Translations under genes and position numbers: made by a program
Source: an uncultured Actinomycetes bacterium
GTDB lineage: Bacteria > Actinomycetota > Coriobacteriia > Anaerosomatales > PHET01
Assembly (NCBI GenBank): GCA_947085035.1
Contig: CAMTUW010000003.1
Span: 27 to 64,026 of the forward strand
Direction of reading: 5' to 3'
Length of the DNA: 64,000 bases
Shown: positions 8,859 through 39,589 of the stretch, one piece after another
Numbering within the stretch: the stretch's first letter is position 1
Layout: every line of letters begins with the position of its first letter
The notes under the pieces: model-generated
Told to the model about the DNA's origin: nothing
The model's database searches: none
What the model saw: the letters and a program-made list of their open reading frames with translations, nothing else

Positions 8859-10535
8859 CTACAGTGAACGGACCAACAGTACCGAGAGCGCATCGAAGTG
8901 ACCTGCGGCGATGACGCCCGCCGGGCCGGTGGTGATGCGCTCCTCGGGATAACCCAACCTCTCAAGCACGGTGACCTCGAAGCGCCCGAGCTCGCTCAAC
9001 GCCGCCGAGAAGACCTGCGGCGACACACTCCGGTCGACGAGCACCAACGTGCGCTCGTGCGTCGCACACGTCGCGAGCGCTTCTTCCGGCTCGCGGCCGT
9101 GGACACTTGCCACCGCGACCCCTTCCCAGCTCATCCCCAGTCGCGCAAGGGCTGTGGTGGCCGACGAGATGCCCGGCACCACGCGCACCGCAAGCTGCGG
9201 CGCGAAGCGACGCACCGACGCGAGCAGGCCGAAGAACGCCGGGTCCCCGCTTGAAAGCGCGACCACGCGTCTGCCGGCGTCGATGGCCCGGGCAACGTCG
9301 GCGAGCGCACTCGCGACATCGGCGCCGATCACGATGCGCTCGACGCCCTCGGGCGCGAACACGTCGAGCAGGCGCGTGCCGCCCGCGACGACCTCGGCGC
9401 GGCGGATCTCTCGCCATGCGGCGGCCGTGAGCAGATCCTCGGCACCGGGGCCCACGCCCACGATCACGAGCCCGTCAGTCGGCTGCGACGCACGCCCGGT
9501 CGCGCCCAACACCTCGCCACCGTAACCGAGCAGCACCACGTCGACCGGCAGACCCGCACGCTCGCTTGACCTGCGCGAGGCGCGCCGGGCTACAGCGTCC
9601 CACACGTGCGCGAGGTCGGCCCGCTCGAGCTCTGCGATCGCCGCTTGGACGGTGGGCAGCTCGAGCAGCCGCGCGACCAGCGGCCCCGCCGCGCCTTCGG
9701 CCGCCGCCACCGCAGCGACCGTCTCAAGGCGCGCGTCACCGGCCCGGTTGTGCGTGTCGAACACTCCCGCAGCGACCTTCACGAGCTTGCCCGCGTGGCC
9801 CACGAGCACCACGCGCTCCACGCCTGCACGCGCGCACGCGTCGAGCAGGTCGCCCACGAAGTTCGAGCAGATGACCACCGCTTCTGCCGGCGCGCCCAAC
9901 TCCTCGATCGCGAATCGCTCTCCGATGCCGCCGGGCGCGAGCCACACGGTGCGGTGCCCCGCAGAGACGGCCACGTCGACTTGGGGCAGCAACGAGCGCA
10001 TCCACGCCTCGGTCGATTTCGGCTCGACGCGCCCCGTGGTGCCGATGATCGAGATCCCGCCCTCGATGCCCAACCGCCGGTTGAACGTCTTCGCCGCGAG
10101 CTCGGAGCCGCCAAGCGCGCCCACCGTGACCAGCGCGTCCACACGATCGCCCAAGACCTCCGCCAACGCGGCGCGGATCATCTCGCGCGGCACGGGGTTG
10201 ATGGCGGGCTCGCCGGGTTCGAGCTGCAGCCCCGACTTGGTCACCACGCCCACGCCCTCACCTGCGGCGAATCGCACGCCCTCGCCACCGAGCTCCACCG
10301 TCACCACGATCGTGATGCCGTCGGTGACATCGGCATCGTCGCCGGCATCTTTCACCACGGCCGCGCGTGCGACGCCCTCGCCCACCAGCGCCGCCGAGAC
10401 GCCCTCGAGGGAGACCAGCGCGCCGCCGGGCAGCGCGACCTCGACCGCGCTGACAGCGTCTTGCCCGGCCAGCAGCAGCGCTGCGGCCTTCGCGGCCCCG
10501 GTCGCACACGTACCCGTGGTGAGCCCTGATCGCAT
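8859..10535 (-). CDS. cbiD/cbiE: fusion protein: cobalt-precorrin-5B C1-methyltransferase (CbiD) + cobalt-precorrin-7 C5-methyltransferase (CbiE)
   Basis: The N-terminus MRSGLTTGTCATGAAKAA... is CbiD-like. From about 9470 downwards, LVIVGVGPGAEDLLT...SSGDPAFFG is a CbiE-type tetrapyrrole methylase. Single 558-aa frame. Confidence 0.85.
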   Translation of the reverse strand: MRSGLTTGTCATGAAKAAALLLAGQDAVSAVEVALPGGALVSLEGVSAALVGEGVARAAVVKDAGDDADVTDGITIVVTVELGGEGVRFAAGEGVGVVTKSGLQLEPGEPAINPVPREMIRAALAEVLGDRVDALVTVGALGGSELAAKTFNRRLGIEGGISIIGTTGRVEPKSTEAWMRSLLPQVDVAVSAGHRTVWLAPGGIGERFAIEELGAPAEAVVICSNFVGDLLDACARAGVERVVLVGHAGKLVKVAAGVFDTHNRAGDARLETVAAVAAAEGAAGPLVARLLELPTVQAAIAELERADLAHVWDAVARRASRRSSERAGLPVDVVLLGYGGEVLGATGRASQPTDGLVIVGVGPGAEDLLTAAAWREIRRAEVVAGGTRLLDVFAPEGVERIVIGADVASALADVARAIDAGRRVVALSSGDPAFFGLLASVRRFAPQLAVRVVPGISSATTALARLGMSWEGVAVASVHGREPEEALATCATHERTLVLVDRSVSPQVFSAALSELGRFEVTVLERLGYPEERITTGPAGVIAAGHFDALSVLLVRSL

Positions 10536-13639: not shown

Positions 13640-13870
13640 CGGTTCTCGGAATGCGAGTCGTGAGACCCGATGAGTGTAGCCACGATGCCCTGAAGAAAGG
13701 CGCACCCAGCGGACTCGTCCTGTTTCCGAGGACTGCCCCGCGCCTACTTGGCAGGTCTCCCGACTTAGGACTCGCGATACGCGAAGCCCATCACGGTGGC
13801 GGACCCGTGCCGGATTCTCACCGGCTTCCCTATTCTCCGTCGGCATCGAGCCGTCGGCACCAAGGAGGCG
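13640..13870 (-). promoter_or_regulatory. cobalamin (AdoCbl) riboswitch, 5' leader of the cbiM-cobD operon
   Basis: The minus-strand read is GGTGCCGACGG...GAGAATAGGGAAGCCGGTGAGAATCCGGCACGGGTCCGCCACCGTGA...AGTCGGGAGACCTGCCAAG. That gives the conserved core plus the B12 box. Downstream, CGCTCC...GGAGCG can pair over the cbiM SD. Confidence 0.9.
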
Positions 13871-13938
13871 TGTTGACGTTGCAGAGGCAACGTTACCCCG
13901 CGCGACGTCAAGTCACAAGGGGGTCAGCACACCTCAGA

Positions 13939-29124: not shown

Positions 29125-29961
29125 CTAGCGCGAGCTGCTGGTCGCGAGTCCCGAGTCCATCATCTCGATCAAGTCGCACATCACCGAGAAGGCGTACTGT
29201 CGAAACTGCTCATCGTTCATGCCAGTGTAAGCCGTCAGAGGCCTCTGATTCAGGAGAGCGTCCACGCCCGCAGAGTCCGCGCAATCGAAGATCACAGCGA
29301 TGCTCTTTCGGGACTTCCTGAACCAAGCAGATTTCTGCGCGGCGAGCCGGACAAGCTCGGCTGCAATCAACCCTCGCCACTCCGGGAACGTATCAAGCAC
29401 GAAGAAGATGTAGTAGAGGTCCTTCTCCTTCTTGAGACGATCCCTGCGTTTCACAAACACCAGGGACTTGTGGAAGATGAAGGCACCGGGATTTGGTACG
29501 CGTACTGCGTAGCCGACCTCGCCATCCGTCAGCTCACCAAGATCGACGATCCAGGGATCCACAAGCATCAGCCCAACGTAGTGAAGCTCCTGAGCAGTGA
29601 GCCCCGATTGCACTGTGACCACTCCCTGCCTTGCCCCCGGAGCGTCGGTGATGAACTCAATCTCAATCTCTTGGCCGTCATCAACCGCCGAATACTTTGT
29701 CACCGGCGGCTTTGTGACCGAGGTGTACCGACACTCGAATTCGGCCGCGACGAGCATCTGATCGATGCTCGCGCCCCTGACTGGCACGGAGCGCGGAACG
29801 GCGAGGTCTATGTCCCGTGTACGGGGGGATCGCCCGGTGTTTGTGGCGTCGTATAGCAGTTCGTAAAGGTGAGGCACCCATCCGCCAGCGACCACCACCA
29901 CATCCAGATACGGCTCTATCGCTGACAGCCCTCTCGTAAGTACAGAATCTACGCCAATCAC
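29125..29961 (-). CDS. nucleotidyltransferase-fold protein (AbiEii / GSU2403-like), putative toxin/effector
   Basis: 278 aa. VVVAGGWVPHLY-x19-RTRDIDLAV fits the NTase G[GS]...DxD pattern used by AbiEii/DUF1814-type proteins. GTG start in a GTGA overlap with the upstream gene. Visibly lower GC than its neighbours. Confidence 0.55.
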   Translation of the reverse strand: MIGVDSVLTRGLSAIEPYLDVVVVAGGWVPHLYELLYDATNTGRSPRTRDIDLAVPRSVPVRGASIDQMLVAAEFECRYTSVTKPPVTKYSAVDDGQEIEIEFITDAPGARQGVVTVQSGLTAQELHYVGLMLVDPWIVDLGELTDGEVGYAVRVPNPGAFIFHKSLVFVKRRDRLKKEKDLYYIFFVLDTFPEWRGLIAAELVRLAAQKSAWFRKSRKSIAVIFDCADSAGVDALLNQRPLTAYTGMNDEQFRQYAFSVMCDLIEMMDSGLATSSSR

Positions 29962-31052
29962 AACTGATCCTCCTTTTCGATCATCGGGCGAATCCGACGA
30001 TCGAAGAGATGTTCGGCTTGTTCCCGCCCACGGACGGGATAGTCGTAGAGATCCAGATAGAGCTGGATGTCGGAAGCCACCCTGATTGGCCCGCTCTGCA
30101 TCTGTGCGTCGTAGAACGCTGACTCACGGTAGTACGGCCGTGACAGGTTGATGTTGCCACCACGCTCGACGCGACGTGCGTCCATCTCAAAGAGAGCAGC
30201 CTGCGCAGATTCGATGTTCCTCACGTAGACATCGACGACGTCGAAGTCAGCATGACGATCAACAATGCTCGCGCCAGCGTGTCCTGTGAACACATAGTCA
30301 ACGCCCTGGGCGCTGAATGAATTCGCGATCTCGGGCATCAAGGCCTCCGCACTCGATCTCGCAAGGAAGTAGCTCCTCGAGACCGGCTGCCGTCTCTGAC
30401 GATAGGAGACCAGCCAGTCGTTGAGCAGTTCGCTGACATGCCGGAGCACGATTCCGTCATCCAGTTTCGCTGCATAGCCTTGGCGCTTCAGCTCCTTGAC
30501 AATCTTCGAGACGAAGCCTGGGCTCAGCTTGATCTGCTCATCTCCGGAGCTCACGATGTCGGCAATCTGGCGGACTCCAATCGGAGACCGCGCACCTAGC
30601 AATATCCGCAACACGAGCGATGCCTTGTCAGAGAACAGATTTCGCTGCTCGCGCTCCTCTTTGTCCGGATTGCTGAACCCTCGTCGGTCAACGTGGACTC
30701 CGGGTGCCAGCAGCCATGCATTGCCGGCGTAGTCGATAAACGCCGCCCGTGCATCACGTAGGACCCTCTGCTTCGAGGTACTGAAGAATGGCGCGGCCAA
30801 CACCGGAATCGAGTCTCGTGCATCGTCTTGCGGGAGGTTCATCATCGCCAGAGCGTCGAGCAGTTGCGCGTTACCGGCACTCTTGAGAAGTTCTATCCGC
30901 AGGTGCAGTTGACCAGCGGAGGAGCGTACATCTGCCCATGCCGCTGGCGCATGCCCTCGTGACTGGACTGGCCGAAGTTCGAGAGAGCTGTCAGGAAAGA
31001 GTTCCCGAAGCGCGCGCGCGAGTTCTGAGTAGTCGCCTTCTCCAGCAGCCAT
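29958..31052 (-). CDS. wHTH regulator with AbiEi-like C-terminal domain, putative antitoxin/regulator
   Basis: 364 aa. It has a central wHTH-like segment (VRQIADIVSS...LSPGFVSKIVKELKRQGY) and a C-terminal ...RVASDIQLYLDLYDYPVRGREQAEHL, reminiscent of the AbiEi antitoxin C-terminus. An extra ~130-aa N-terminal domain is present. GGAGGA RBS before ATG 31052. Confidence 0.5.
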   Translation of the reverse strand: MAAGEGDYSELARALRELFPDSSLELRPVQSRGHAPAAWADVRSSAGQLHLRIELLKSAGNAQLLDALAMMNLPQDDARDSIPVLAAPFFSTSKQRVLRDARAAFIDYAGNAWLLAPGVHVDRRGFSNPDKEEREQRNLFSDKASLVLRILLGARSPIGVRQIADIVSSGDEQIKLSPGFVSKIVKELKRQGYAAKLDDGIVLRHVSELLNDWLVSYRQRRQPVSRSYFLARSSAEALMPEIANSFSAQGVDYVFTGHAGASIVDRHADFDVVDVYVRNIESAQAALFEMDARRVERGGNINLSRPYYRESAFYDAQMQSGPIRVASDIQLYLDLYDYPVRGREQAEHLFDRRIRPMIEKEDQL

Positions 31053-31070
31053 GTTTCCTCCAAGATAGCT

Positions 31071-31088
31071 GTTTCCCGTTCGGGAAAC
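31071..31088. promoter_or_regulatory. perfect inverted repeat GTTTCCCG-TT-CGGGAAAC, candidate operator of the AbiE-like cassette
   Basis: It lies 19-36 nt upstream of the 31052 start codon. Additional GGAAAC/GGAAGC/GGAAC half-site-like copies occur at 31101, 31110, 31125 and 31150 in the same intergenic region. Confidence 0.45.
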
Positions 31089-31205
31089 ATCATACTCTCA
31101 GGAAACACAGGAAGCAACTCAGCAGGAACGTCGCCCGCAACAGCGCCCCGGAAACGGGTATCCTCCAGCACACGACTCTCCTCACCGACCCCGGGAGCAC
31201 AGCAC

Positions 31206-31904
31206 ATGTCCGCAAAGGCCTCTGCCGAGCCGGTCGCCAACCTGCCGCGCGCCGAACGCGAGCGTCTCGCGGGTCTTTACTCCGAGCGCCTTGAGGCCCA
31301 CTACGGCGACCCGCACGCGGCACTCGATTTCGAGAACCCCTACCAGCTGCTCATCGCTGTGATCCTGTCTGCTCAGACCACGGACGCGAACGTGAACAAG
31401 GCCACTCCCGCCCTGTTCGAGCGCTTCCCCACCCCTGCCGCCCTGGCTGACGCCACTCAAGACGAGGTCGAGGGCCATGTGCGCTCGCTGGGCTTCTTTC
31501 GCCAGAAGGCGCGAAACATCATCGCCACGTGCCGAAGGATCGTCGCGGAGTACGACTGTGCGGTGCCCGACACGATGGCGGATCTCGTGACGCTGCCGGG
31601 GGTCGCGCGCAAGACGGCGAACATCGTGCTGGGCGAGGGCTTCGGGAAGACGGAGGGCATCGCGGTCGACACGCACGTCTTTCGGCTCGCTCGTCGTTTC
31701 GGGCTCTCGACCGAACACGATCCCGACAAGATCGAGCGCGACCTGATGTCGCTGTTCCCCCGCGACCACTGGCATCGCGTGAACTACGACCTCATCAACC
31801 ACGGGCGCGCGATCTGCGACGCCAAGCGCCCACGGTGCGGCCCGTGCTTCTTGAACGACGTGTGCCCGGCAGCCTTCAAGCCAGCAGGTTGGCGCGAGGA
31901 CTGA
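31206..31904 (+). CDS. nth: endonuclease III (DNA glycosylase/AP lyase)
   Basis: LLIAVILSAQTTD..VN...L.GVARKTANIVL (HhH-GPD) and a C-terminal CxxxxxxCxxCxxxxxC 4Fe-4S cluster loop (CDAKRPRCGPCFLNDVC). Confidence 0.93.
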   Translation: MSAKASAEPVANLPRAERERLAGLYSERLEAHYGDPHAALDFENPYQLLIAVILSAQTTDANVNKATPALFERFPTPAALADATQDEVEGHVRSLGFFRQKARNIIATCRRIVAEYDCAVPDTMADLVTLPGVARKTANIVLGEGFGKTEGIAVDTHVFRLARRFGLSTEHDPDKIERDLMSLFPRDHWHRVNYDLINHGRAICDAKRPRCGPCFLNDVCPAAFKPAGWRED

Positions 31905-35737: not shown

Positions 35738-36046
35738 TCACGGGCGGCTCACTGGCGTCACCAGTCGCCGAATCACGAGCACGTCGAGCACCGCCGCGAT
35801 CAACAGCAACGGGATGGAAAGAACGATCAGTCCCGCGAACGACGTGAGGTCCTCCCATGTGTCCGCAGCACCTAGGTAATTGAAGTAGATCCACCAGCCA
35901 GCAAACCCTGCGACCACGAGCCCCTTCAACGCCAACGCGACTACGGGCAAACGGCCCGCGACCTTCCTGCGCAGAGCAAGCACGTCAACGGCAATCGTGG
36001 CGATCGCGATCAGCCCGAGTCCCCAGAACGCGTATACCCACGCCAT
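35738..36046 (-). CDS. small membrane protein (3 predicted TM helices)
   Basis: Start trimmed to MAWVYAFWGLGLIAIATIAV... The call rests on hydrophobic segments only. Confidence 0.4.
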   Translation of the reverse strand: MAWVYAFWGLGLIAIATIAVDVLALRRKVAGRLPVVALALKGLVVAGFAGWWIYFNYLGAADTWEDLTSFAGLIVLSIPLLLIAAVLDVLVIRRLVTPVSRP

Positions 36047-36201
36047 GCCATCCTCCGCTTTCGCTGTCGACAATAGGCCTTGGTCTTGTTCTCCTCTTCG
36101 AGCAGAGGATCGATCTCTCGTCACGCCTCTCCACAGTACATCTGTAACCGTCACGAATTCCTCGCAGACTATCGCACCAGTTCGTCAACAGGGCATGGCC
36201 C

Positions 36202-37065
36202 TCAGATCGCGAGGTCTAGCGGAAGGTCCGAGATGTCCTTGAGGCGGTCGCCGTCGACCATGATCGCGAGCATGTCAGCAGCATCCTGCATCCCTAGTGC
36301 GCTCACCGTTTCCTGCAGCTCATAAAGCGCGAAATGGTACACGCAGTCGACATCGCCAGTGCCGAGGGCAATCGATGCGAGTCGGCTGGGCGTGGGCTCC
36401 GCCGTCACCACGACCACGTGAGGCAGACGCCCTTTACGGTTGCGAACCAGATTCAAGGCCTCTGACCTCGCGTTCTGTGCTCGGTCGCTACGAATCGTCC
36501 ATTTGCACGAGATACTAGCGTGTAGCAACGGCAGCCCGCCATTCCTGAGTCTCAGGCTGGCGAGCGTCGCCACACTGCCATCGACCAACACCTCTGGCGT
36601 ATTGATCGCGTCGTCATCCTCGGGTTCCCGCGCGATGACGACGTCCGGCGTGATCGTATAGTCGCTTCCGAGGGCTGCAGCGAGTTCAGGGTCATTCTTC
36701 GCGGCCCGGTCGAGAGCAACCAGATGCGAATACTGTTCGTAGCGCGCGATCTCAAGTCGATTGCGCCCCCGGACATGCTGGACGTCCCACTTGCCGGGTC
36801 GCAGATGCCCGAGCTTCAAGAATGTCTCCCGCACGAAGTCAGCACACGCGATCTCGAACTGATTGCCCGAGGTCTGACCGGCAGAACGTTCGCCGACGGT
36901 TTCCGCCTTGAGGAGGTCAGCTATGCCCCTAGCCAACCTGATACTTGGTTGATTAGTGCCGTCACAGTTGCTGGGCCGACCCTGGGAGTCGATGGTCAAG
37001 CACGACTGAAGCAGGGCATTATGGAAGGCTCTGCGCGCCTCTACGAATTCGACGGGTCCGTGCAT
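36202..37065 (-). CDS. type II restriction endonuclease, NgoMIV / CCGG-family
   Basis: ISCKWTIRSDRAQN contains the S-x-K catalytic motif and the R-S-D-R CCGG-recognition motif described for NgoMIV (S185/K187, R191/D193/R194). An upstream ITPDVV Asp and downstream SEALNL Glu are plausible D140/E201 equivalents. ATG shares 1 nt with the methylase stop. Confidence 0.8.
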   Translation of the reverse strand: MHGPVEFVEARRAFHNALLQSCLTIDSQGRPSNCDGTNQPSIRLARGIADLLKAETVGERSAGQTSGNQFEIACADFVRETFLKLGHLRPGKWDVQHVRGRNRLEIARYEQYSHLVALDRAAKNDPELAAALGSDYTITPDVVIAREPEDDDAINTPEVLVDGSVATLASLRLRNGGLPLLHASISCKWTIRSDRAQNARSEALNLVRNRKGRLPHVVVVTAEPTPSRLASIALGTGDVDCVYHFALYELQETVSALGMQDAADMLAIMVDGDRLKDISDLPLDLAI

Positions 37066-38018
37066 CAGGCGACCCTGAAACTACGTCTGGCGGAAAGTGC
37101 GGTGACTATCTGCCTAGCAACAGCCTCCGCGACCGGCGCAGGAAAAGCGTTCCCGATCTGCCTGTACGTGGCTGTCTTGCGACCGGCGAACTGCCAATGA
37201 TCAGGGAATCCTTGGATGCGTGCGGTCATTCGCGTGGTAAGCCGGGGCATACCCACGAAATCGGGATCAGGGGCGGCATCCCAAAGTCCGCGACCGTCGA
37301 CGCTCAGGGACTCCCACGCGCGGCGGGCACGAGTGGGACCCAGGTCTGGCCCGCCATGCTTCTTCGATCCACCGACGAGTGTCGGCGCAATAGCGTCGGC
37401 GCGCTCCCGCCAATCATCAACTGAACGCCAGCCGTTCGCGCCCATGAGGTCGTGCAGAAGCACACCCACCGTGGCAGGTTCTACTGAATGAGGTAACGGC
37501 CACTCGAAATGGTCCGCGACGTCTTTCCTCATTCCGACGAAGATGACTCTGGGCCGCAACTGAGAAACGCCGTAGTCGGATGCATTGAGCAAGCGCCAGC
37601 TGGGGACATAGCCAAGATCCCTCAGTTGTTTCTCGACCTTGTTGCGGTAGTCGTCAAAGAGGGCATCCAGGAGTCCGCGAACGTTTTCGAGCATCACGGC
37701 GCGAGGACGGATTTCGTCGACCAACCGAATGGCCTCGGGGAACATGTCTCGTTCATCGCTGGCGCCGAGCTGCTTGCCAGCTTTCGAGAACGGGGGACAC
37801 GGAACACCCCCGGCCAACAGATCGATGCCCTTGTACGGAGCGCCGCAAAACTCGCGCAGATCGCCCTCTATCACGTTCCACTCGGGCCGGTTCAGCCGAA
37901 GGGTTTCACACGCTACAGGCTCAATCTCAACAAGAGCCGAGTGAGCAAAGCCGGCCAGCTCCAAACCCAACGCTTGGCCACCCGCTCCAGAGCAGATTTC
38001 AACCGAGTTGAAGTCCAA
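37065..38018 (-). CDS. DNA (cytosine-5)-methyltransferase
   Basis: Motif I EICSGAGGQALGL, motif IV GGVPCPPFS, motif VI ENVRGL, motif VIII QLRPRVIFVG and motif X YRQIGNAFPAPVA. TTG start preceded by an AAGGGGAG RBS. Confidence 0.9.
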   Translation of the reverse strand: MDFNSVEICSGAGGQALGLELAGFAHSALVEIEPVACETLRLNRPEWNVIEGDLREFCGAPYKGIDLLAGGVPCPPFSKAGKQLGASDERDMFPEAIRLVDEIRPRAVMLENVRGLLDALFDDYRNKVEKQLRDLGYVPSWRLLNASDYGVSQLRPRVIFVGMRKDVADHFEWPLPHSVEPATVGVLLHDLMGANGWRSVDDWRERADAIAPTLVGGSKKHGGPDLGPTRARRAWESLSVDGRGLWDAAPDPDFVGMPRLTTRMTARIQGFPDHWQFAGRKTATYRQIGNAFPAPVAEAVARQIVTALSARRSFRVA

Positions 38019-38125
38019 CTAGTGCTCTCCCCTTAGTCGCAGTACAGGTAGACAACTGCACCCGGATAGTAGCAGGATTCCGGTTTTCTCCCGCCACGAA
38101 TCGACATTCTCCGAAGCCAGTATAT

Positions 38126-38139
38126 ACGAACACATGTTC
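38126..38139. promoter_or_regulatory. LexA/SOS box of the Gram-positive (Cheo box) type: CGAACACATGTTCG
   Basis: It is a perfect match to CGAAC-N4-GTTCG, ~108 nt upstream of the methylase start. On the minus strand it sits between TAGCAA and TATACT (17-nt spacing), a plausible -35/-10 pair. Confidence 0.6.
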
Positions 38140-38277
38140 GTTTGCTAGACCCGTTCACCGCGCTCGTCCATCAATTCGAGGTTGAGCCGTACTCCGTCCG
38201 GGAGCGACCGAGTTCCGCCTCCCACCACGCCCGGAGCGACGAACAACTGATGCTCATCCCATCCGCGAAGCGAGACG

Positions 38278-38727
38278 TCAGCTCACGGCTCTCCTGATGA
38301 GCCTGGCGATCTCTTCTTCCACGGTGGATGTCAGTTCTTTGAGCGCGAAGGAGGTCGGCCACATGTCGCCTTCGTCCAGGTTCGCGGCATCGCTGAACCC
38401 GAGAGTCGAGTATCTGAACTTGAACTTGCTCGCGATTTGGAAGAAGCACACGACTTTGCCGTTGAGTGCGTATGCGGGCATACCGTACCAAGTCTTCGGC
38501 GTCAGCTCCGGCGCGCTGGCCTTGACGATCTCGTGAAGCCGCAAGGCCATCTGCCGGTCCGGCTCAGGCATCTCAGCGATCTTTGCGAGCACATCGTCTT
38601 CCCCGTCATGCTTCGAACGCGCACCGCTCCGTACTTCTGCCTTGAGCTCTTGCGTGCGCTCCTTCATCGCGGCTCGTTCTTCGGCCGAGAATCCCTCGGA
38701 TTTCCGCGCTTCCTTCTCCGGACTCAT
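38278..38727 (-). CDS. DUF1801 (YdhG-like) domain protein
   Basis: Start trimmed to MSPEKEARK... [34 protein letters not shown] is typical of DUF1801. Confidence 0.65.
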
Positions 38728-38776
38728 GTGACGCTCCCTTTCACTAGACGGTCCATCGTGCACCTCGGGGATTCGA

Positions 38777-39589
38777 TCACGACGACGGAGGTGCGTCCTG
38801 AGTCTGCGCAGCACCCCAACTCGAAACGGTCGAGCTACGAGCCTCTTCGAGGTGGTAGGCGGCGCGCCCGTACATGCCGAAGTAGTACGAATTCGCCAAA
38901 CCCAGATAGAGCCCAAGCGCCATCGCGAACACGATGTAGCCGAAGTAGCCAACAACTCCCAGGACAAGGATGGCGATTGCCTTCAGTTCCGACGAACCAG
39001 GAAGCAACACGATCAACAGGCCGAACGAGCCGAAATACAGGATCATCGCCGCAAGCGATATGCCCATGTTGAGTGAGGTGAATCCCCACGCCCTCATCAG
39101 CTTGGGCTTCTGTGCCTTCATCAGGCGCCAGATCTCTTTGAACTGGAAACCCGACTCGAACGTCCCGTAGAGCGCCACACGCAAGATCGTTGAGGAAGTG
39201 AAGGGGATGATCAGCACTGTCAACGTCATGACCACGAACAACGAAATCCCGGTGACCACTGCCATGCGCACCCATACCGTCGCTGGATCAAAATCTCCCA
39301 GCAGGCCGCCCATCAATGGCACCGCCATCATCATTGGAGTGAGAAATAGGCTCAGCACGACGGAGTACGGGAGGACGGCGACCGTGGCCTTGAGTCCCGC
39401 CAGTGCCTGCCCGGAGAAGTCAGACCAACCGGGTATTCGCCCGTCATCACCCCAGGCGACGTTGCGCTGGTACTCCATCTGCCAGCCGATCATCCACACC
39501 GTGCCGACATACGGGATAAGGGTGATGAGTACTCCGAGGCCGAGCTTGCGCTTCCACTGAGGATCCTTTCGGATGGCGGAGAATGCCAT
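38777..39589 (-). CDS. DUF4013 family membrane protein
   Basis: Start trimmed to [44 protein letters not shown] (DUF4013 N-terminal signature), followed by 5-6 TM helices. Confidence 0.65.

Follow-up and report, generated by a model that had tools for sequence, protein, structure and literature searches.

A two-gene cassette lying between mfd and nth was analyzed in a stretch of 64,000 nucleotides from an uncultured Actinomycetes bacterium (Coriobacteriia; Anaerosomatales; PHET01), namely positions 27 to 64,026 of the forward strand of contig CAMTUW010000003.1 (GenBank assembly GCA_947085035.1); this whole stretch is hereafter called the window. Gene A (29958-31052, minus strand; 364 aa, ATG start) encodes a regulator with three domains, a putative antitoxin of the COG4861 / Pfam AbiEi_2 type, and gene B (29125-29961, minus strand; 278 aa, GTG start) encodes a MenT-like putative toxin of the Pfam NTP_transf_8 / 'GSU2403 family'. 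From their sequences, the cassette is assigned to the catalogued COG4861-type branch, a less-studied part of the AbiE/MenAT group of toxin-antitoxin (TA) systems, of which it is a typical member. This family assignment and the horizontal acquisition of the cassette are both held with high confidence. An earlier note on this DNA, made from the sequence alone, had proposed a divergent AbiE-type TA or defence candidate; its identification of the pair is supported here, and TA and defence stand as putative functions. The COG4861/PF09952 + PF12281 branch is annotated by analogy only. What is new is the anatomy of the domains and the definition of the operator for this functionally uncharacterised branch, the locus itself being ordinary for its family.

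Two gene pairs were set apart in an earlier survey, COG5340-COG2253 (AbiE proper) and COG4861-COG4849; in both, the predicted regulator precedes the predicted nucleotidyltransferase (NTase), and COG5340 and COG4861 are without sequence identity to each other (Dy et al. 2014; PMC3985639). The cassette was initially taken for a diverged variant, a view abandoned here in favour of typical membership in the COG4861-COG4849 pair that Dy et al. (2014) had predicted. The open reading frames and their junction were confirmed in the sequence: the TGA stop of A and the GTG start of B share the GTGA at 29961-29958 (a 4-nt overlap), and a Shine-Dalgarno sequence for B, AGGAGG, is found at 29974-29969, 7 nt 5' of the start. 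The lower GC content, first judged by eye, was borne out by computation, with 0.582 for the cassette against 0.656 for the whole window (standard deviation 0.035 in 2081-nt windows), which ranks it in the bottom 0.2% of windows of the same size. At third codon positions (GC3), values of 0.658 for A and 0.706 for B compare with 0.80-0.85 in nine flanking genes, that is, 0.10-0.19 lower.

Domain anatomy of the two proteins

B matches PF12281 NTP_transf_8 over residues 20-195 (E 7.4e-18, 65.8 bits, gathering cutoff 26.3), and its close homologues carry the NCBI name 'GSU2403 family nucleotidyltransferase fold protein'. An exhaustive profile search of 1.84 billion representatives gave 1,738 clusters of B relatives at 50% identity, almost all of them stand-alone proteins of ~270-290 aa. 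As for the two NTase families named in the earlier note, the GSU2403 type was upheld by the PF12281 match and the AbiEii/DUF1814 type was not, its model giving no match at E <= 1. The motif GGW...RTRDIDLAV, on which that proposal was based, is present in B, with 19 residues between GG and RTRDIDLAV instead of the ~30 that had been counted.

Conservation in the B family was assessed with 37 sequences reaching down to ~30% identity. Invariance or near-invariance is seen at G27, T48, D50, D52, E100, K165, R172, K177, K180 and D181, and at G26 and E102 (36/37 each), so that the Pol-beta NTase motifs hG[GS] and DxD and the third carboxylate are kept as G26-G27, D50-x-D52 and E100/E102. The spacer from GG to D (G27-D50) is 22 residues long, above the canonical 9-13. 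The predicted catalytic DxD follows a Thr that is invariant (37/37) in T48-R49-D50-I51-D52 (29806-29820, minus strand), and T48-R49-D50-x-D52 falls in register with T39-R40-D41-x-D43 of MenT1, in which T39 is auto-phosphorylated upon antitoxin binding and D41 coordinates Mg2+ (PMC11375011). Set against the DUF1814 motifs (I, hG[GS]; II, DhD; III, K-L-x-A-a-x-x-R; IV, +DxxD), motif III is approximated in B by K165-x-L-x-[FYH]-x-x-R172, and in place of motif IV stands K180-D181-L-Y-Y184, where an invariant Tyr replaces the second Asp.

The structure model of B (pLDDT, the predicted local distance difference test, 92.3; pTM, the predicted template-modelling score, 0.91) was compared with the PDB using Foldseek. 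The top match was MenT3/Rv1045 (7c46; E 1.6e-4, prob 1.00, template-modelling (TM) score ~0.40), with further MenT3 chains (8xhr, 6y5u; prob 1.00, TM ~0.40), a fungal DUF1814-like NTase (5uvd) and MenT1 (8an5_B; prob 0.98, TMt 0.50) also near the top. ANT enzymes, CCA-adding enzymes and poly(A) polymerases ranked lower than these matches. Sequence and profile searches of PDB sequences with B returned zero matches and no sequence-level link to MenT or AbiEii. B is modelled as an intact Pol-beta-type NTase whose nearest solved relatives are MenT toxins. Because the catalytic residues are conserved and the T-R-D-x-D register is that of MenT1, B is predicted to be an active enzyme that carries a regulatory Thr like that of MenT and AbiEii toxins.

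The AbiEi-like character of A, proposed from its C-terminal sequence, is supported by a match of residues 206-353 to PF09952 AbiEi_2 (E 3.8e-8, 34.2 bits, gathering cutoff 21); the isolated C-terminal domain gives 28.1 bits. In a published table, PF09952 is equated with COG4861 (PMC7251935). There are 448 homologues of A, the best 120 of these 448 being mostly full length, and the NCBI name on A homologues is 'type IV toxin-antitoxin system AbiEi family antitoxin'. Full-length homologues number in the hundreds for A and for B and come chiefly from metagenome-assembled genomes (MAGs) of Coriobacteriia and Thermoleophilia. The stretches LHLRIELLKS, FIDYAGNAWL and VASDIQLYLDLYDYPVRGREQAEHL, quoted earlier for A, are all present in it. 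From the structure model (pLDDT 85.9, pTM 0.81) together with sequence conservation, A is predicted to consist of three domains, namely a restriction-endonuclease-like one that is degenerate, a MarR-like winged helix, and an NTase-like one that is likewise degenerate.

The N-terminal domain (residues 1-125; 30678-31052, minus strand) had been guessed to be a PD-(D/E)xK-like module. This guess agrees with the model at the level of the fold, and the catalytic triad is not kept. In the model, the domain runs alpha-beta-beta-beta-alpha-beta-alpha, followed by a beta-meander, and Foldseek matches ascribed to it are to nuclease folds, namely EndoMS (5gkj_B, E 8.6e-4), MspJI, NucS (2vld) and Cap4, with E-values of 8.6e-4 to 1.6e-2, ~107-117 aligned columns and prob ~1.0. 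At the positions of the canonical triad, D...(D/E)-x-K, the A protein of the window carries A37, E54, L56 and K57, and the family shows D37 in 58%, E54 in 87% and K56 in 11% of its members, so that the triad is classed as degenerate. Pfam matches to Hjc or restriction endonucleases are sporadic, Hjc being found in 1/28 family members (E 0.0024), and sequence and profile searches of PDB sequences with this domain gave nothing meaningful. The most conserved stretch of A, residues 95-145 (window ~30618-30770), is neither the winged helix nor the Pfam domain: it covers the last part of the N-terminal domain together with the linker. Across ~55 A sequences, D107, G110, N111, G125, R137, D142 and K143 are invariant and F126 is nearly so, while position 122 is always [DE] and position 123 always [RK]. 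The N-terminal domain had been described as an extra one, a description that does not hold: it is standard in the subfamily of A, with nearly all of 80 metagenomic homologues aligning from ~residue 10. For the wider family it is dispensable, because short forms (at locus L005 and in protein P0333, both described below) pair with the same NTase family.

The central part of A (residues ~140-205; 30438-30635, minus strand) is predicted to be a MarR-like winged helix-turn-helix (wHTH), with its recognition helix at ~178-190 (PGFVSKIVKELKR), in line with the winged helix proposed earlier. Evidence comes from a weak match of the A profile to MarR regulators in the PDB (E 0.023, profile positions 146-191), from MarR/IclR HTH Pfam matches among A homologues, and from the model, in which residues 142-203 form three helices and a hairpin.

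The AbiEi_2 C-terminal domain (residues 216-358; 29979-30407, minus strand) is a putative toxin-neutralising domain. Foldseek matched it to ANT(2'')-Ia (4wqk; E 2.9e-3, TMt 0.51) and to MenT1 (8an4; prob 1.0), in alignments spanning ~165-172 columns. Residues 253-277 are modelled in the layout of an NTase core, that is, strand, G260-x-S262, helix and an acidic strand with D271..D274. These carboxylates are poorly kept in the family (D271 47%, D274 45%), and the residues invariant bar one gapped sequence are G260, G298, N300, Q330, D334, R341, G342, E344 and Q345. The idea that this domain is a recognisable paralogue of B was rejected at the sequence level, profile-profile comparison finding no similarity; the same comparison between the N-terminal domain and the B family showed zero similarity. 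Because its carboxylates vary and profile similarity to B is undetectable, the C-terminal domain is best read as a degenerate NTase-like fold. AbiEi from S. agalactiae has a C-terminal domain with like structural neighbours (adenylyltransferases, 5UVD) (Beck et al.; PMC7319586).

Operator, promoter and distribution of the pair

A candidate operator of four half-sites directly precedes gene A (31052-31107, minus strand), with the sequence TGTTTCC-N11-TGTTTCC-CGAACG-GGAAACA-N11-GGAAACA. TGTTTCC occupies 31107-31101 and 31089-31083 and GGAAACA occupies 31076-31070 and 31058-31052, the last A of half-site 4 being the A of the ATG of gene A. The pattern has one match in the window and none in 100 shuffles (0/100), even with 2 mismatches allowed. 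In 37 fetched loci, A homologues are directly preceded on their 5' side by the same four-site geometry (> > < <), which none of the nth-anchored, cassette-free loci L006-L069 shows. Regulator-first order and inverted repeats had been named earlier as established features of AbiE systems, and conserved repeats in the promoter of A agree with them.

A putative promoter is placed at 31089-31117 (minus strand), with a -35-like TTGCTT (31117-31112), a 17-nt spacer and a -10-like TATGAT (31094-31089). A consensus promoter and terminator scan called no promoter at the cassette, and this placement is read from the sequence and from conservation across loci: in a low-GC clade, the same positions carry near-consensus -35 TTGAC(A/T) and -10 TATAnT boxes (TTGACA, TATAAT). 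Half-site 1 would fall within the promoter spacer and half-site 2 would abut the -10 box, and half-site 4 overlaps the Shine-Dalgarno/ATG region. Moreover, half-sites and recognition helices vary together. TGTTTC[CA] is paired with helices of the form ...PGYVSK[VI][VI]..., and TGTTG[TC]C, in a distant clade, with ...PG[YF][VI]SRMA...; the TGTTTCA sub-variant goes with a change from LER to LDR in the helix. The co-varying residues are 183-185 of A, and the independent evolutionary events are few. Such co-variation is what direct readout by the recognition helix would predict.

The two genes travel together. In 50/61 homologous loci, counted among those with at least 850 nt downstream of the A homologue, a B homologue is found <=400 nt downstream of A. 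P0333 (486 aa) joins a MarR-like HTH, AbiEi_2 (73-218) and NTP_transf_8 (243-417) in one chain; as a lone case, it could be an antitoxin fused to its toxin in nature, or else an artefact of gene calling or of a frameshift. The contexts of homologous cassettes are diverse. The neighbours are ABC transporters at L001, an AbiEi_4/AbiEii pair together with a sigma factor at L004, DEAD/MZB helicase genes with a second pair at L005, and MNT-like and ribbon-helix-helix (RHH) genes at L138-L143. One distant, proteobacterial pair lies between transposase genes on the conjugative megaplasmid pSYMBR3459 of Paraburkholderia phenoliruptrix (L150 3820-5792); its A-like partner is annotated 'hypothetical protein' and aligns with A over the wHTH and C-terminal domain only. 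The region upstream of this plasmid pair bears repeats of its own, TAACATGGCC, GGCCATGTTA and TAACGTGGCC. At L005 (11563-13049), a short-form pair lies 2.6 kb downstream of a long-form pair in the same Thermoleophilia genome. Its first protein (213 aa) has a wHTH and a weak AbiEi_2 match and lacks the N-terminal domain, and its partner is a PF12281 NTase with a weak AbiEii match as well (E 0.067); DEAD, Helicase_C and MZB genes lie upstream.

The closest cassette, found in L001-L003, encodes an A protein 78% identical to that of the window, and L001 7947-9902 shares 80.3% DNA identity over 1957 nt. The shared unit (29150-31106, minus strand), taken to be the transferred one, comprises the operator, A and B; DNA similarity to L001 ends at both of its edges, and the genomic context of the L001 cassette differs from that in the window. 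In L001-L003 (~9090-9930, three independent assemblies), the B homologue is frameshifted near residue 125 and A is intact, the N-terminal half of B being 91% identical and the C-terminal half lying in another frame. B may thus be a true pseudogene there, or the frameshift may be an assembly error common to the three. A broken B beside an intact A in the closest relative would be the order of decay expected for a toxin. The pair is a self-contained two-gene module, patchy and mobile in its distribution.

Proposed mechanism and its alternatives

Several known systems bear comparison with the cassette. Like it, AbiEi-AbiEii is bicistronic, with a wHTH regulator first and a Pol-beta NTase second, and in AbiEi, as in A, the structural neighbours of the C-terminal domain are NTase-like. 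AbiE autoregulates through inverted repeats in its promoter, and the cassette has inverted half-sites over its putative promoter; however, these are four 7-bp half-sites (> > < <) as opposed to two 23-bp inverted repeats in AbiE. The wHTH of A is central, after the nuclease-like domain, whereas that of AbiEi is N-terminal, and no sequence similarity is detectable between AbiEi and A (Dy et al. 2014). Neither A nor B matched the models PF08843 (AbiEii/DUF1814), PF13338, PF11459 and PF17194 at E <= 1, and scans of NCBIfam and PHROGs with both proteins found nothing (E <= 1 or 0.1). Among the model searches that the earlier note had proposed, AbiEi_2 and NTP_transf_8 gave matches, while AbiEii, NCBIfam and PADLOC did not. 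Since matches to the DUF1814, AbiEi_3, AbiEi_4 and PADLOC models are lacking, the pair is placed outside AbiE sensu stricto and is AbiE-like by analogy only.

The MenAT systems of Mycobacterium tuberculosis form a further group for comparison. In MenA2-MenT2 (Rv0837c-Rv0836c), a large COG4861 putative antitoxin is encoded directly upstream of a smaller NTase-fold putative toxin (PMC7450476, PMC7319586); this pair is also actinobacterial, and its gene order and size relation are those of the cassette. However, MenT2 is described as a DUF1814 protein of ~217 aa, whereas B has 278 aa, belongs to PF12281 and has no DUF1814 match. The toxins of MenA1-MenT1 and MenA3-MenT3 (type VII) resemble B in its predicted fold, in hGG and T-R-D-x-D and in the third carboxylate strand (E100/E102), and MenT1 additionally in its catalytic Lys K137 (K165 in B) and downstream Asp D152 (D181 in B). 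In contrast, identity between MenT toxins and B is 12-14%, there is no link at the level of hidden Markov models (HMMs), and TM-scores are ~0.4-0.5. MenA1 is small and helical and MenA3 is a two-domain COG5340 protein, and A, with three domains and COG4861, is unlike both. In AbiEi-AbiEii, MenA1-MenT1 and MenA3-MenT3, the antitoxin induces auto-phosphorylation of the toxin, and the toxins extend tRNA 3' ends; AbiE of Streptococcus agalactiae and Lactococcus has been reclassified as type VII (bioRxiv 10.64898/2026.01.19.700257). Type VII MNT-HEPN systems also combine an NTase-fold protein with a partner under covalent-modification control, but there the NTase is the antitoxin and an RNase is the toxin, whereas in the cassette the putative toxin is the intact NTase, and A has an NTase-like domain without conserved catalytic carboxylates.

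A TA mechanism can be proposed for the pair on these grounds, and its chances are put a little above even. A would bind the four half-sites through its winged helix and repress its own operon, probably by blocking access to the -10 box, to the start of transcription and to the ribosome-binding region. Free B would add nucleotides to RNA 3' ends, most likely, like MenT and AbiEii, at tRNA acceptor stems, and this activity would arrest translation. The C-terminal domain of A would bind B and neutralise it, probably through induced auto-phosphorylation of the invariant Thr48 beside the catalytic Asp50, in the type VII mode. Support for a TA reading comes from the neighbourhoods of homologues, which adjoin AbiEi_4/AbiEii genes, other TA genes and transposases, and from the presence of one pair on a conjugative plasmid. 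Candidate roles are abortive infection against phages, addiction or stabilisation, and stress-linked growth control. Handles for a functional test are offered by the MenT-like active site and its Thr, the pseudo-NTase domain, the nuclease-like domain and the four-site operator.

A number of points weigh against this TA mechanism. Operator binding, the interaction of A with B and phosphorylation are all inferred, and no report of toxicity, target, antitoxicity or phage defence was found for any COG4861/PF09952 + PF12281 member. MenT2, the only COG4861-partnered toxin to have been tested, showed no toxicity in either M. smegmatis or E. coli (PMC7450476), and no phosphopeptide was obtained from it (PMC11375011). 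Subsequent biochemical work left it out 'due to a lack of detectable activity', and a menT2 mutant is reportedly impaired in guinea-pig infection. Because MenT2 showed neither toxicity nor activity, it offers no mechanism for B; moreover, the comparison of MenA2-MenT2 with A-B is one of descriptions, not of sequences. TM-scores of B against MenT3 are modest (~0.40), the PADLOC models gave zero matches to A or B at E <= 1, and the DUF1814 model likewise gave none for B. Searches of viral contigs and phage genomes found zero A or B homologues, and a viral structure library held generic NTase folds only and no homologues.

In the main alternative, B would be a benign NTase, acting on a small molecule such as an antibiotic or on another, non-lethal target, and A its dedicated transcriptional regulator. 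This alternative is considered unlikely, though it deserves to be kept in view: the lack of toxicity of MenT2 keeps it alive, ANT(3'')(9) and other non-toxin NTases are found among the weaker Foldseek matches of B, the C-terminal domain of A resembles ANT(2'')-Ia, and PADLOC recognises neither protein. However, B is structurally nearest to MenT toxins and not to ANT (E 1.6e-4 vs 1.8e-2), and its invariant T-R-D-x-D fits the MenT phospho-regulation motif. The patchy, mobile distribution beside TA and defence genes also speaks against a benign enzyme, as does the nearest relative, in which B is frameshifted and A intact. The 4-nt overlap and the predicted tight auto-repression are, in addition, typical of TA modules.

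It has also been considered whether A itself could be the effector, its N-terminal domain being a nuclease or DNA sensor with a non-canonical site and B modulating it or acting alongside; this is judged improbable. The proposed site would consist of the invariant D107, [DE]122, [RK]123, D142 and K143. Foldseek matches to the nuclease domains of EndoMS/NucS, MspJI and Cap4 (prob ~1.0), the absolute conservation of D107-x2-G-N, [DE]122, [RK]123, G125 and D142-K143 in ~55 sequences and the sporadic Hjc and restriction endonuclease Pfam matches point in its direction. Against it, the PD...(D/E)xK positions vary (A37 in the window; K56 in 11%), and the short forms at L005 and in P0333, which are without the N-terminal domain, keep the same NTase family. 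A related and equally doubtful possibility is that A works as a sensor-effector: DNA that is invading or damaged would be recognised or cut by its nuclease-like N-terminal domain, and its wHTH and pseudo-NTase domain would relay the signal to release a MenT-like B. This rests on the same non-canonical cluster (D107, [DE]122, [RK]123, D142-K143), and no AbiE or MenAT system is known to have a DNA-sensing trigger of this kind. If it were true, it might account for the inactivity of MenT2 under standard conditions.

Insertion site and genomic neighbourhood

The comparison of the mfd-nth junction among relatives, suggested in the earlier note, showed that the pair is lacking there. In 11 related Coriobacteriia MAGs (Nth 63-81%, Mfd 69-76% identical), mfd and nth are kept as divergent neighbours, and neither A nor B is found at the junction in any of them (0/11, nth-anchored loci). 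In L007-L018, the space between mfd and nth is 1.5-4.1 kb with varying content: a gene for a ~480-aa MFS_3 transporter, without counterpart anywhere in the window, in L011-L018; nrdD-nrdG (nrdD with a gene for a radical-SAM activase) in L008; and, in L007, short open reading frames of lower GC that were not recognised. Because the 11 relatives are without the pair and hold other genes there, the junction is a variable spot and the cassette a lineage-specific acquisition, to which low GC3 and the 80% DNA identity to a cassette elsewhere also testify. Within the species, all four to five contigs with identical Nth or A hold the cassette at the same site, and no empty-site allele was found among contigs with identical Nth, so that the cassette appears to be fixed. 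No insertion signatures (integrase, insertion sequence element, target duplication or flanking direct repeats) were found at the cassette, and the nearest tRNA genes are >9 kb away. Direct repeats near the cassette were considered as insertion marks and rejected as chance matches, being short, imperfect and not at its ends.

On the 3' side, the cassette is followed on the same strand by mfd, a gene for a SurA-like peptidyl-prolyl isomerase, and mazG; on the other side lie the divergent nth (31206-31904, plus strand) and then a bactofilin gene. The longest mfd open reading frame starts at TTG 29054. Because the Mfd proteins of relatives align only from ~residue 9-34 and AAGGAG precedes ATG 28952 with an 8-nt spacer, the true start is probably ATG 28952 and not TTG 29054. 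From the stop of B to this ATG there are 172 nt with zero predicted terminators, which makes read-through transcription from the cassette into mfd possible. If the pair were native to the lineage, a housekeeping operon inherited vertically and regulated along with mfd and nth, its low GC being incidental, this would agree with the arrangement (172 nt upstream of mfd, same strand, no predicted terminator) and with the shared site in all four to five same-species contigs. This reading is very improbable and effectively refuted by the 11 relatives whose junctions hold an MFS transporter, nrdDG or others instead of the pair, by a GC3 0.10-0.19 under that of nine flanking genes, by a cassette that has 80% DNA identity and lies in an unrelated context, and by homologues in many unrelated contexts, one plasmid included.

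For the host genome, the cassette represents a small acquired islet of TA or defence type at the variable mfd-nth junction, near a restriction-modification islet.

An Rfam scan found zero RNA elements inside the cassette; elsewhere in the window, and unrelated to it, a cobalamin riboswitch lies at 13733-13879 on the minus strand (Rfam RF00174, 76.3 bits). The restriction-modification islet, of type II and ~5 kb from the cassette (window 36202-38018, minus strand), consists of a gene for an NgoMIV-type restriction enzyme (PF09015, E 9.5e-122) adjoining one for a C-5 cytosine DNA methylase (PF00145, E 7.9e-69). It sits in a low-GC patch of its own at ~36000-39500, where GC is near 0.58-0.61.

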